A stretch of DNA of 64,000 nucleotides from Chloroflexota bacterium (GTDB lineage: Bacteria; Chloroflexota; UBA11872; VXNJ01): the NCBI GenBank assembly GCA_965261345.1, contig OZ253449.1:800001-864000 (forward strand), read 5' to 3'. This document shows positions 13,429-18,281 of this stretch, piece by piece. Positions within the stretch are counted from its first letter, which is position 1, and every line of letters starts with the position of its first letter. The notes under the pieces were generated by a model. That model was not told the origin of the DNA. It made no database searches and was given only the letters and a program-made list of their open reading frames with translations. A program made the translations under genes and the position numbers.

Positions 13429-13521
13429 GATCACCTGCGAAATGCCCGCATCCCCACCAAAGTGAGCTTTAGGCCCGCTGTAGGGCGGCGGCGGTTGCCC
13501 CTGTACCTTGTATGTTCCAAA

Positions 13522-13695
13522 TGGGAAGTCCCGGGTGCGGTAGGGCGCCTGTACCTTGGTCCATTGAGACCGTTTTAAAGCACGCTCGCCGCACCCGGAT
13601 CTCCCGGCGCATAGACCCCGAACAATTGCTCGGTGGGCTCTAGACCCCGTATTCGCAAGGAAGGGCGTAGCGTCGGGAGTAACTATAGGGAGTTT
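13522..13695 (+). ncRNA. Bridge RNA of IS110-A (ends approximate)
   Basis: LTG CCTGTACCT 13548-56; RTG TTTAAAG 13574-80; LDG ACAATTGCT 13622-30; RDG (ATTC)GCAAG 13655-59; closing stem TCCCGGGTGCGG/CCGCACCCGGA. Confidence 0.85.
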
Positions 13696-13700
13696 TACAT

Positions 13701-14648
13701 ATGTGCGAGGACGTATATGTAGGCGTCGACGTTGCCAAAAACACCGTCGATATCGCCCTCGGGCCCCAGGGCGAGGTCTTTACCCTGCCCAACTCTGCGG
13801 CCGGGTTCGGGGCGTTGATCAAGCGCCTCGAGAACTATCTGGTGGCGCTGGTGGTCGCAGAGGCCACTGGCGGCTACGAGGAGCAGCTGGCCGACGCTCT
13901 CCGGGACGCCGGCTATAAGGTGGCGGTGGTAAATCCGCGCCAGATGCGCGACTTTGCCCGGGCGCTTGGGATCCTGGCCAAAACCGACCGGATCGATGCC
14001 CGGGTGATCGCCCGCTACGCCGAGGCGGTAAGGCCCCCGGCAAGGGAGCGCAAGTCGCCCGCCGAGCGCGAACTGGCGGGACTGGTTGCCCGCCGCGGCC
14101 AGCTCATGGACCATCTCACCGCCGAGAAAAACCGGCTGGGGAGGCGGGTAGTTCCGCGTGTACGTGCAGACATCAGGCGCGCCATTGCCGGACTGGGGCG
14201 CCGCATCGCCACCCTTGACCGCGATATCGGCAAGCTGATTAAGGCCGACTCCGATCTTGCCACCCGCAGCGCGCTGCTGACCTCGGTGCCCGGCGCCGGC
14301 CCGCAGCTGGCGGCAACCGCGATCGCCTACCTGCCCGAGCTTGGAACGGTGGACGAGAAGCAGATCGCAGCCCTGGTAGGGGTTGCGCCCCTGAACCGCG
14401 ACAGCGGCGCGTATAGTGGCAGGCGAACGACCTGGGGCGGACGCTCAAGGGTCAGGTCGGCGCTTTACATGTCGGCCCTGTCAGCCTCGCGCCACAACCC
14501 GGTGATCAAGGCTTTTTACGACCGGTTGGTGGAGAGCGGGAAACCCAAAAAAGTGGCGCTGACGGCCTGCATGAGAAAGCTGCTGGTGATCCTGAACGCG
14601 ATGCTGAGGAACGGCGAGTATTGGCGCGAGGAGTCCGCCTCGGGCTGA
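13701..14648 (+). CDS. IS110-family bridge recombinase A, intact
   Basis: GVDVAK, EATGGYE, KTDRIDA (DEDD), RDSG serine motif. Confidence 0.95.
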
Positions 14649-14860
14649 ACGCCGGGCAGGTCCGATCGCTCTTGCGGGCAAGGTCCCTGGCGAAGCCATG
14701 CCCGGGATCGGGCTATTGCGGCGATTACGCATCCGGTTATCGCCTGTCGATCGGGCTGCGGTCACTATGAACCGCGGTCGGGGCGCTGGATCTATCCTCC
14801 CCTTTCTCCTGGACCCCTCTGACCCCACCTCTGCCGGAATTGACAATCAAGACAATTGCT
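14649..14860. repeat. Conserved ~210-nt non-coding right end, shared with IS110-C (21345-21569)
   Basis: Shared blocks GCAAGGTCCC, CGGGATCGGGCT, GCGGCGATT.CGCATCCGGTTA, CTATGAACCGCGGTCGGGGCGCTGGAT, GGACCCCTCT. Confidence 0.85.
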
Positions 14861-14865
14861 TTAGG

Positions 14866-15075
14866 TAGCTTCATCTGACTAAGCAATTGGGCATGCGCGA
14901 TGCTCTGCTCAGCCTGGATGAAGTCAAGGTCAGCGGCCGGGAGTAACCAATCGCCCCTTGTGTCTTTTGAGCACCGTGGGGGGGACCCGTGCCCCGGTGC
15001 AGCTGGCCGCGGCAGATGCCCCGTGGAGAGTTTGCGTCTTAGAACGCCGGTACAGGGATTGGCAGGTGTCGTGGC
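14866..15075 (+). ncRNA. Bridge RNA of IS110-B (ends approximate)
   Basis: 5' stem CTTCATC/GATGAAG; LTG CAATCGCCC 14948-56; RTG G7 14978-84 against flank C7 16383-89; LDG and RDG match the element ends. Confidence 0.75.
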
Positions 15076-15125
15076 GGACCTTCAATGCGATCAATACCAT
15101 CGCGCACCACACATGGGGAAGGACC

Positions 15126-16367
15126 GTGAAAGAACACACTTCCTGGTACGCCGGTATCGACTGGGCCATCGCCGAGCACCAGGTCTGCATCATCGACGCT
15201 GACGGCAACGAACATGGTCAGCGTAATTTCCCGCATCGTGGATCCGGATTGGCGGCCATGGCCGCCTGGATCCTGTCCCGCACCGGAACCGACCCCGAAG
15301 ATATCGCCATCGCCATTGAGGTGCCGCATGGACCGGTGGTCGAGAGCCTGCTCGATCGCGGGTTTAAAGTGCATGCCATCAACCCCAAGCAACTCGATCG
15401 CTTCCGTGATCGCTTCTTCCCAGCCGGCGCCAAGGACGACCGCCGCGATGCCAGGGTCCTGGCCGATGCCCTGCGCACCGATCCGCAGGTGCTGCGGCAG
15501 CTGGCATCGCCAGATCCCTTGACCGTGGAGCTAAGAGAGTTCTCACGTTTGGCTGAGGAGCTCACCAAGGAGCGCACCCGCCTTAGCAACCGGGTGCGAC
15601 AACAACTCTGGCGCTACTATCCGCAGGTCCTGGAGATCAGCAACAACGTCACCGAGCCATGGATCCTGGATCTGTGGCAGATGGCTCCCACACCGGAGAG
15701 GGGGCGGCGATTGAGTCGAGGCCGGGTAACCCGGTTGCTAAAACGCCATCGCATCCGTCGCATTGATGCGACAGGCGTGCTCTCGATGCTGCGCCAGGAA
15801 GCGATAAAGGTGTCTCCGGGCACAACCGAGGCTGCCGTCGCGACGATCACCCTGGTCGCCGAACGTCTAAAGCTCATCCAGCGTCAACTGCTCGAGGTCA
15901 ACACCCAGATCGACCGCTTAACCGATGCCATCGCCAACGATGCACTGGGTGAGAGCGGGCAGCGCGACGTGGCCATCCTCTCATCTCTTCCCGGAGTCGG
16001 AAGGACGGTCCTCGCCACACTGCTCACCGAGGCGCATGATCCTCTTATGCGGAGAGACTATCGCGCCCTGCGCTCATTATGCGGAGTTGCGCCGATAACC
16101 AAGCGATCGGGCAAGAGCATGATCGTTGTCCGACGCCATGCCGTCCATCGTCGACTCGCCAATGCCATGTACCACTGGGCCCGGGTGGCGGTTCAGCATG
16201 ATCCGGTCAGCCGACGCAAATACGACGCATTACGCCTTCGAGGCCATCGGCATGCAAGGGCGTTGCGATCGGTAGCTGACCGTTTGTTGGCGGTGGTCTG
16301 CGCTATGCTGCGTAACCAGACCCTTTATCAGCCAGAACTGCTCCGGAGTGATGCCGCAGCGGCTTGA
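15126..16367 (+). CDS. IS110-family bridge recombinase B (different subgroup), intact
   Basis: GIDWA, IEVPHG, KDDRRDA, LPGVG, KRSGK; GTG 15126 preceded by GGGGAAGG. Confidence 0.93.
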   Translation: MKEHTSWYAGIDWAIAEHQVCIIDADGNEHGQRNFPHRGSGLAAMAAWILSRTGTDPEDIAIAIEVPHGPVVESLLDRGFKVHAINPKQLDRFRDRFFPAGAKDDRRDARVLADALRTDPQVLRQLASPDPLTVELREFSRLAEELTKERTRLSNRVRQQLWRYYPQVLEISNNVTEPWILDLWQMAPTPERGRRLSRGRVTRLLKRHRIRRIDATGVLSMLRQEAIKVSPGTTEAAVATITLVAERLKLIQRQLLEVNTQIDRLTDAIANDALGESGQRDVAILSSLPGVGRTVLATLLTEAHDPLMRRDYRALRSLCGVAPITKRSGKSMIVVRRHAVHRRLANAMYHWARVAVQHDPVSRRKYDALRLRGHRHARALRSVADRLLAVVCAMLRNQTLYQPELLRSDAAAA

Positions 16368-18281
16368 CAAATGGTAGAGAGTCCCCCCCGGGGGGAACTG
16401 GAATTGGAATTCCACAACGGCCTCGGTGGATTCGCGGCCAACGGGAGCGAGTACGTTACCGTGCTCGGCCAAGGGCAGTGGACCCCGGCACCCTGGGTAA
16501 ACGTGGTTGCCAATCCGGAGTTTGGATTCCTGGCGCCCGAATCCGGATCGGGCTATACTTGGTCGGCAAACAGCCGTGAAAACAAGCTAACGCCCTGGAA
16601 CAACGACCCGGTTTCCGATACGCCGGGCGAGTCGTTTTACGTAAGAGACGAGGACGCCGGGACGGTCTGGGGACCGACCACCCTACCGATTCGCCAGGAA
16701 CGCTGGCCCGATGTCATTCGGCACGGTCAGGGGGTATAGCCGGTTCGAGCACACGTCCCACGGTATCGCCCTGGATCTGACCCAGTTCGTGCCGCTTAGG
16801 GATTCGGTAAAAATACCATGCCTCATTCTTTCCAATGAATCGAGCCGCACCCGGCGCCTTACCGTTACCGCCTACGCGGAGTGGGTGCTCGGAGTTACCC
16901 GGAACCGTTCCGCGCCTTTCGTGGTTACCGAAATTGACGCCACCACCGGGGCCATGTTTGCTCGCAATGCGTGGAACGGCGAATTTTCGGGCGGGTTGCT
17001 TTCGCCGCTATGGCCGGGAGTCAAACCTCCTGGACCGGTGACCGGCTTGAGTTCCTCGGCCGCAACGCGAGCCTCGATCACCCCGGGGCGTTAGCGCGCG
17101 GGGAGGCGCTGTCCGGCAGGACCGGAGCCGGCCTTGATCCATGCGCAGCGATTCAGACGAAGCTGGAACTCGAGCCTGGGCAGCGCGTCGAAGTGGTGTT
17201 CCTGCTCGGCGAGGATGCCAATTCCGAGGAGGCTCGCTCGCTGGTCGAACGCTACCGCGTCCTAGATTGCGAGTTGGCGCTCGGCGAGGTAGGCGCGCAC
17301 TGGGACCAGATCCTGGAAACAATTCAGGTAAAAACCCCGATCCGGCGATGAAGCTGCTGTTCAATCGCTGGCTCCTTTACCAAGTCCTTGCATGTCGAAT
17401 CTGGGCCCGTTCGGCGTTTTACTAGGCCGGTGGCGCCTACGGATTCCGCGATCAACTCCAAGGCTCCCTGGCGTTGGCGGTGTCCAATCCGCAGATCTTG
17501 CGCGAGCACGTATTGCGCGCCGCATCGCGCCAATTTAAAGGGGGACATCCAGCATTGGTGGCATCCTCCGACCGGCCGAGGGGTTCGGGCCCAGTTATCC
17601 GACGACCGCCTCTGGCTTCCGTATGCCGTAACCCACTATCTGCACGCCACTGCGGATCATCCCGTTCTAGACGAGGAGGTGGGGTGGATTGAGGGACTGG
17701 CGCTGACGCCTGAACAACAGGAACCCTACTTTGAACCAACTAGCTCAACGGAAGCGGCGAGTCTTTACGAACACTGCGCGCGGGCCTTGGACCGCAGCTT
17801 TGCGGTTGGCAGTCATGGGCTCCCGCTAATCGGCGCTGGCGACTGGAACGACGGGATGAACCGGATTGGCCACCATGGACGCAGGGAAAGCGTATGGCTG
17901 GGCTGGTTTCTTGAAACGAACCTGCGGAATTTTGCCCGGATCGCCGAATCCCGCGGCGAGAGCCGGTGCTCCGCCAGCTGGCGGAGCACGGCCGATTCGC
18001 TCGTAAATTCGCTGGAAGCGGAGGGGTGGGACGGCAAGTGGTATCGTCGCGCGTTTTTCGACGATGGGTCCCTGCTCGGCTCTGACGAAAACGAGGAGTG
18101 CCGGATCGACGCGATCGCCCAGTCTGGGGCGGTCATATCCGGTGCGGGCGACCCTGGGTGGGCGCGCCTGGCAATGCGATCTGTGGAGGAGCGGCTCATC
18201 CGGCGCGGCGACGGCCTGATGCTGCTCTTTGATCCGCCATTTGACAAGACGTCACCAGACCCCGGCTTGTATCTTGACTTC

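Follow-up and report, generated by a model that had tools for sequence, protein, structure and literature searches.

Two IS110-family recombinase genes stand one behind the other on the plus strand of the window analysed here, a stretch of 64,000 nucleotides (nt) from a Chloroflexota bacterium (contig OZ253449.1, positions 800,001 to 864,000). A Pfam domain search places the open reading frame (ORF) of element A at 13701-14648 and that of element B at 15126-16367. Is this a tandem pair, or has one element entered the other, and what then directed it there? The original prediction, made from the sequence alone, held that the bridge RNA of A is programmed for the end of B. Its strings and coordinates all proved correct when rechecked against the sequence. 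The genome that holds the window (G000) is a single contig of 2.39 Mb with 61.7% G+C. Positions without a contig name refer to the window, and its main features are as follows.

13509..14860, plus: element A, an IS110-group insertion sequence of 1352 bp including one core CT (ends common to 8 genome copies; Pfam; full-length IS621 match)
13701..14648, plus: A recombinase gene, 315 aa (ORF, Pfam, structure match)
13499..13508, plus: left tip of B, severed by A; C-run/core bases and then CTGTACCT; carries the left target of A (13500-13506) and the core CT (13507-13508) (contiguous with 14861 onward in uninterrupted copies; paired by the right donor guide, RDG, of B)
14861..15125, plus: rest of the B left end, encoding the B bridge RNA (sequence comparison)
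15126..16367, plus: B recombinase gene, 413 aa, GTG start (ORF, Pfam)
16370..16390, plus: B right end and C-run at the chromosomal junction (copy comparison; empty-site contig X4)

Element A inside the left end of element B

Element B spans about 13499-16390 and is split by A. Between the window and the c8/B8 locus, where A copy c8 lies in a second B copy, identity runs from 13498 to 16390, and the DNA outside differs. In the sister genome G002, all five B copies (99.5-99.6% identical, with five different flanks) read CCCTGTACCT directly followed by TTAGGTAGC. These uninterrupted copies show directly that removing A rejoins B, as had been claimed, and the start predicted for empty B copies is borne out both there and at the left ends from other genomes. 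Outside G000, B-family left ends are uninterrupted in 14 of the 14 examined, namely the five of G002, three of G006 (84% identity), B3- or B2-type ends in G003, G005 and G006, and one further B-like end in G003. The two B copies of G000 (B1 and B8) are both occupied by A, and the five of G002 are all empty.

Public contigs agree with this arrangement. Contigs from two other studies (X10 and X14) place CCCTGTAC directly before 14859, and a contig of another run (X4) joins 13501 to 16394 with three C between, which represents the chromosomal site without B or A. From the uninterrupted copies and the public contigs, it follows that A is an insertion into B, and that B with A inside, B(A), is an insertion into a C-run.

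Eight copies of A are present in the genome. The copy in the window (c1) and c2, c3, c4 and c5 are complete at 99-100% identity, c6 is decayed, and c7 and c8 are interrupted. Every copy starts with TGTATG after CT and stops with ACAATTG-CT. The core CT, at 13507-08 and 14859-60 in the window, is found at both junctions in 7/8 copies, with CC on the right of c7. Sequence comparison among the copies reveals that they are mosaics. The A ORF contains DEDD_Tnp_IS110 (PF01548, 8.7e-25) and Transposase_20 (PF02371, 7.4e-20), and the recombinase aligns over its whole length with that of IS621 (8wt6; E = 5.6e-43, residues 5-306). The available text of PMC11208158 gives D11, E60, D102, D105 and S241 as the catalytic residues of IS621. 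The corresponding D, E, D, D and S columns are identical in A, in the motifs GxD, EATG, KTDxxDAR and SG (mapped by eye, with the chain numbering offset by 2). We regard A as an autonomous member of the IS110 group, akin to IS621. The B ORF also contains DEDD_Tnp_IS110 (6e-36) and Transposase_20 (3.7e-15), and the B recombinase matches IS621 in the RuvC-like part only (E = 2.1e-9).

Guides of A and the tip of B

Upstream of its gene, A has a non-coding left end of 192 nt, which folds into two stem-loops (single-sequence fold, z = -2.95). We assign the following parts to this bridge RNA.

13531..13599, plus: target-binding loop of the A bridge RNA, with outer stem, internal loop and inner hairpin (single-sequence fold, z -2.95; 13-sequence consensus fold)
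13548..13556, plus: left target guide (LTG) of A, CCUGUAC-CU (hypervariable across lineages; matches the left flank of each lineage)
13574..13580, plus: right target guide (RTG) of A, UUUAA-AG (its reverse complement is the core plus right flank)
13622..13630, plus: left donor guide (LDG) of A, ACAAUUG-CU, in the same sense as the A right end ACAATTG-CT (alignment)
13655..13659, plus: RDG of A, GCAAG, pairing with the core CT and the first bases of A, TG(T) (covariation)

Our alignment of A-family left ends holds 13 sequences from five genomes of the genus. Their consensus fold recovers the target loop, with compensatory changes in both stems, and partly recovers the donor loop that is clear in the single-sequence fold. 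The scaffold is conserved bar two short hypervariable blocks, one on either side (5' and 3') of the first internal loop. In each element the 5' block repeats the left flank with CT, and the 3' block, once reverse-complemented, reads CT and then the right flank. In the window, the left flank at 13500-13508, CCTGTACCT, is identical to the LTG DNA at 13548-13556 in 9/9 bases, and TTTAAAG at 13574-13580 faces CTTTAGG at 14859-14865 in antiparallel, forming five Watson-Crick and two G-U pairs. According to the portion of PMC11208160 available, LTG and LDG have the sense of the top strand, and RTG and RDG are complementary to it.

In order to compare guides with flanks, 12 non-core positions were scored in 10 distinct A-family guide lineages, wobble allowed. 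Cognate guide/flank pairing has a mean of 9.4/12, and non-cognate pairing a mean of 5.2/12 (n = 90). The lowest cognate score is reached by 16 of the 90 non-cognate pairs, the best of these 16 coming from two lineages that share an RTG. For the RTG, all five non-core bases pair in 8/10 lineages. The target guides of the A family covary with the insertion site, so the guide assignments are validated at the level of sequence comparison. That the identity of guide and flank arose by chance, with A picking its sites by protein-DNA recognition, is extremely improbable: we found no point in its support, LTG and RTG covary with the flanks across the 10 lineages, and the genome scan described below contains no other full match.

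The donor guides follow the ends of A itself. Twelve of the 13 aligned sequences have ACAATTG in the LDG (G002D departs from it with ACAGTTG), and wherever an A-family copy has kept its right end intact, the LDG equals that end. The RDG, GC(A/G)AG, covaries with T/C at element base 1 in all 12 sequences with a defined start. Handshake bases lie 3' of RTG and RDG in the part of PMC11208158 at hand, and the A family agrees with this rule. The CA that follows the RTG pairs with the last two bases of the left donor, TG, and the G that follows the RDG pairs with the C found before CT in all A-family targets. We had also considered the UG after the LTG, with which the match to the flank reaches 11/11, as a handshake guide. 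This candidate was dropped, since the same source puts the handshake bases 3' of RTG and RDG and this UG belongs to the inner stem.

A search of Rfam gave no bridge-RNA family match on the plus strand of the window. The family sX15, an sRNA of Xanthomonadaceae, matches the antisense of the A bridge RNA below threshold (13522-13684, minus; 32.5 bits, E = 0.011), and the sX15 model may describe, from the opposite strand, a left end of IS110 type. Exact-pattern scans for the A target loop found no match in the genome contigs or metagenome contigs searched, from which records of the window's own genome were possibly excluded.

The sequence that A enters is also read by B. Three guides of B are recognised in the part of its left end that lies beyond A.

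14978..14984, plus: probable B right target guide GGGGGGG, complementary to the poly-C right of B copies (flank comparison)
15026..15033, plus: probable B left donor guide GAGAGUUU, in the same sense as the right end GAGAGT-CC with two U-G wobbles (the B2 lineage reads GAGAGUCC there)
15049..15057, plus: B right donor guide GGUACAGGG, complementary to the left tip CCCTGTACC (covariation in 9/9 B-family elements)

The tip at 13499-13506, CCCTGTAC, is the reverse complement of 15050-15057, GTACAGGG. Tip and RDG covary in the nine B-family elements compared: CTGTAC occurs with GUACAG in five, and CTATAC (or CATAC) with GUAUAG in four of the B2 lineage, from four genomes. The B tip is conserved because it is the right donor sequence of B, read by the RDG of B itself. 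The covariation thus upholds the claim that the donor guide of B constrains the tip. The stronger wording, that B cannot easily change this sequence, needs a caveat: the B2 lineage carries a compensated change, and A is present there nonetheless.

We consider it very probable that the target loop of the A bridge RNA is complementary to CCTGTAC-CT-TTAAA/TTAGG, the first ~12 bases of B-family elements with two preceding C, that the A recombinase and bridge RNA carry out a guided insertion of A into B-family left tips, and that the tip makes a good address for A, B keeping it as donor sequence.

The insertion site of B is less sharply defined. Seven to 10 C lie directly right of 9/10 B1-type copies, the exception being L051, and the crossover of B cannot be placed exactly within the C-run. 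For the left target guide of B, comparison with the variable left flanks gave no convincing match, several registers giving 1-5/7. In the B4 lineage (G000:C1:22058-22101, which is L055:1447-1490), only 44 nt separate the left tip from the start codon, the right end is short, and there is no room for a bridge RNA. Deletion may have produced this lineage, which would then rely on other B elements.

Occupied tips, other sites and rival explanations

The genome contains six B-family elements: B1, B8, B2, a B3 remnant, B4, and B108k, the last without a left end. A is present in 5/5 existing left tips, always in the orientation of B and 8 bp inside the tip, and a search of G000 found no empty B-family tip. 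Seven of the eight A copies carry the CCUGUACCU guide (A1), and c7 carries a variant guide pair (A2). As predicted, the flanks of A are mostly B left ends: five of the seven A1 copies occupy B-family left tips at a single depth (8 bp) and in one orientation, and A2 copies lie in an IS3-family left repeat.

The four occupied B lineages share 60-64% protein identity, and their sequences diverge right after the tip. At least four A insertions are therefore required, one per B lineage. Pairing at the occupied sites amounts to 12/12 in B1/B8 (with two wobbles), 12/12 in B4, 11/12 in B3 and 10/12 in B2. By scanning the genome over the non-core positions, wobble allowed, we found no unoccupied 12/12 site, 14 sites at 11/12, and 178 sites at 10/12 or better.

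A might also have spread among B ends unguided, either because B copies exchanged sequence (homologous recombination or gene conversion) or solely because B multiplied with A as its passenger. The mosaic nature of the A copies is consistent with this, as are the two sister copies B1 and B8, which both hold A, and copy c5, which looks like a recombinant of two A copies. However, lineages at 60-64% protein identity that differ right after the tip offer too little for homologous exchange, every junction falls exactly at the CT core, and the orthologous B3 remnant in G003 (L057) is empty. We regard unguided spread as very unlikely.

On the other hand, several observations weigh against guided insertion into B tips as a complete account. 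The B2 site pairs at 10/12 only, which is no better than about 170 unoccupied sites; given the 178 sites at this level, pairing alone does not account for the B2 insertion. The sister copies B1 and B8 have 12 derived differences in common, and therefore their two A insertions are possibly one event, copied by B. The mosaic A copies suggest that some flank/guide combinations may derive from recombination after insertion. Two of the seven A1-guide copies, c5 (G000:C1:14041-15392) and c6 (875274-876606), lie in the left end of an IS3-family element, which has HTH_Tnp_1 and rve domains in Pfam. At least 4/10 A-family lineages lie between ordinary host genes, and mobile-element targeting is therefore no rule of the A family. 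Finally, the promoters discussed below are consensus matches only, and circles, transcripts and transposition are predicted from sequence. Half-match recombination, described in the accessible parts of two 2026 preprints (10.64898/2026.08.14.744561 and 10.64898/2026.08.31.748434), with guide half-matches at internal boundaries, may explain the weak B2 site as well as c5 and c6.

The site of c5 and c6 fits the A2 guide, not the A1 guide. A2 has the scaffold and ends of A, but its LTG is CAUUCCC-CU and its RTG is AAUGA-AG. Its carriers are c7 (G000:C1:142528-137890) and the single A copy of G002 (L002:1501-2845), and both sit in the IS3-family repeat TGGCCTGyTCCC-CT-TCATTGG, at approximately positions 5-18 of the left repeat. 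At c5 and c6, an A2 RNA may have guided A1 circles in trans, which is conceivable because A1 and A2 do not differ in their donor ends. The other possibility is that the left end was exchanged by gene conversion once A had inserted. As the A copies are visibly mosaic, the two routes are not separable for these copies.

A second, independent case comes from G003, where a relative of A (78% identical; L003:1501-2818, which is G003:C1:16207-17524) carries the guides UUUUGAC-CU and AAGUC-AG. It is inserted precisely, and in antisense, inside the bridge-RNA gene of a B2-type element. Its guides fit this site, and an uninterrupted copy has the counterparts of both flanks in adjacent stretches (97.7% and 92.4% identity). 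We also considered an A-like element of G002 (L036) as a B insertion and rejected it; its left flank resembles a B2 tip, but its right flank is not B. The element G005c has a repeated target, and a Pfam search of its flank ORFs gave no match.

Such different targets bear on another explanation, in which the pattern reflects survivorship in safe harbours and not parasitism. Guides would drift, copies would persist at costless multicopy targets such as transposon ends, and A would have no special dependence or effect on B. The many A-family targets, with at least 4/10 lineages between host genes, agree with it, as does the aim of the sister variant A2 at an IS3-family end; furthermore, IS110-family elements prefer repeated sequences in the available text of PMC11208160. 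Against it, the target of A coincides base for base with the donor sequence of B and with its predicted -10 box, a second A lineage (that of G003) is inserted in another part of a B-type element, and all five B-family ends in G000 are occupied. We hold this explanation to be possible, if on the doubtful side, and it disputes mainly the word 'hyperparasite', not the mechanism of guided insertion.

Two fragments bring guide-encoding DNA itself into view. An A-like element (70% identical; G000:C1:148475-148523, minus) appears to have in front of it a duplicate of its own beginning, 48 nt long and ending at the LTG. This looks like an insertion into the LTG-encoding DNA of another copy, the LTG being by design the left half of the target. 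At G000:C1:115703-115770, a 45-nt A2-type left-end fragment stops at the LTG and runs straight into an IS3-family terminus, which may be due to deletion or to half-site recombination at guide-encoding DNA.

Other mobile elements adjoin or interrupt these families. A 1.93-kb group II intron (RVT_1 and GIIM domains; ORF in two frames) at 19302-21236, minus strand, interrupts an A-like IS110 recombinase gene of the window (18346-21569). A 95.6%-identical intron occupies the matching gene position in A copy c8 (G000:C1:269286-271217), where an IS3-like element as the 1.93-kb insert was ruled out by the Pfam assignment to a group II intron. Seven further copies, at 74-85% identity, adjoin IS3-family and B-family elements, and the intron seems to home into mobile-element genes. 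A 1.75-kb repeat (G000:C1:23106-24859 and at least 10 other places) is present in 11 copies at 99.1-99.7% identity. One of them interrupts B4, one truncates B108k and one abuts an A-like element, and the repeat is 71% identical to a stretch overlapping a Mutator-type (IS256-like) transposase ORF.

At the chromosomal site, two tRNA genes with long variable arms (13100-13190 and 13237-13320) lie just upstream of the B insertion. Right of B, a gene resembling GH94 glycoside phosphorylases extends over 16371-18287 and is split over the ORFs 16371-16739, 16711-17094 and 17388-18287. Being split over several frames, it is probably a pseudogene. B(A) is located at the 5' edge of this frameshifted gene, in a C-run/G-run.

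Predicted junction promoters and known systems

Joining the ends of each element in silico reveals a promoter-like site across each predicted circle junction, and no such site was found in the linear sequence from 13300 to 16500.

14840..14845, plus: TTGACA, the -35 half of the predicted circle-junction promoter of A (-10 TATGTT at 13511-13516; 10/12 consensus, 17-nt spacing)
16364..16369, plus: TTGACA, the -35 half of the predicted circle-junction promoter of B (-10 TACCTT at 13504-13509, overlapping the A target; 9/12 consensus, 18-nt spacing)

The earlier claim that a promoter also constrains the tip has only the consensus match TTGACA-18-TACCTT across the predicted circle junction in its favour. 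As A starts with T, the -10 hexamer of B is unchanged by the insertion. We infer from the consensus matches that the predicted junction promoter of B would read into A.

In the mechanism that we propose, the recombinase and bridge RNA of A have inserted A 8 bp inside the left tip of B, in the orientation of B. The donor sequence of B would be left intact, so that B could still carry A along. The bridge RNA and recombinase gene of A would be placed directly downstream of the junction promoter of B, and the bridge RNA of B itself would be pushed 1.35 kb away.

We also speculate on a more far-reaching scenario, which we think unlikely, in which A is a true hyperparasite that captures the excision-dependent promoter of B. 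The insertion point falls at the last base of the -10 box, which the insertion would rebuild, circularised B(A) would fire into the bridge RNA and recombinase gene of A with the guide RNA of B 1.35 kb downstream, and the intact donor end would carry A to new sites and genomes. The CTATAC/GUAUAG pair of B2 would then be a compensated escape attempt, the G003 relative a second move in an arms race, and the two A1-guide copies in A2-type sites the result of trans guiding. To call A a 'hyperparasite', in the sense that it harms B or depends on it, is an inference, for which the two occupied B copies of G000, against five empty ones in G002, and the promoter geometry are no more than indirect hints.

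The A/B pair provides a natural and well-controlled case of bridge-RNA reprogramming, with near-identical scaffolds in one genus, different guide pairs and readable insertion sites. It indicates that an RNA-guided element can aim at a sequence which another RNA-guided element must keep for its own guide. The system allows questions about guide/target coevolution between mobile elements, and about bridge RNAs acting in trans between co-resident elements, and natural mismatch tolerance can be read from the occupied sites (12/12, 11/12 and 10/12). Meanwhile, annotators are warned that a tandem IS110 gene pair can be a nested pair.

Transposon-end targeting within the IS110 family is already known from IS1383/IS1384 and from IS4321/IS5075. 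IS1383, in work said to have been published by Muller, Lauf and Herrmann in 2001, reportedly integrates into the inverted repeats of IS1384. Like A, it belongs to the IS110 family and is specific for the end of a different insertion sequence. IS1384 is not known to be a member of that family, and to our knowledge no guide RNA was recognised when this work appeared. In the A/B case, by contrast, the element that is entered is guided by RNA as well, and A targets the bases that the guide of B has to read. IS4321 and IS5075 are reportedly found in Tn21-family repeats, in work attributed to Partridge and Hall in 2003. They resemble A in that they enter another transposon at a fixed site and in a fixed orientation, a few bases within its terminus. 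They differ in being members of the IS1111 group, whose guide RNA lies downstream of the gene, and their target is a repeat of a DDE transposon, read by protein.

For one IS110 element targeting another, we found no printed description in the literature searched, with subscription journals mostly, and supplements, outside that search. The available text of Hu et al. (bioRxiv 10.64898/2026.08.14.744561) describes IS110 modules inside or next to other IS110 modules, with guide half-matches at internal boundaries. In that account, growth proceeds by the donor recognition of the resident element itself, whereas the target loop of A is written for the end of B.

The closest relative in mechanism is IS621. 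As far as the available parts of PMC11208160 and PMC11208158 describe it, A shares with IS621 the recombinase of the DEDD + Tnp type, the bridge RNA in the left end with target and donor loops, and the CT core at both junctions. The predicted -35 box in the right end and -10 box in the left end of A would match the layout of IS621. Shared, too, are the top-strand sense of LTG and LDG, the complementary sense of RTG and RDG, and the fitting handshake bases. The targets of IS621 are REP sequences of the host chromosome, whereas that of A is the donor end of a second IS110 element. What is new here is that the host element is itself RNA-guided, that the target is the sequence its guide must read, and that several guide variants can be compared on one scaffold.

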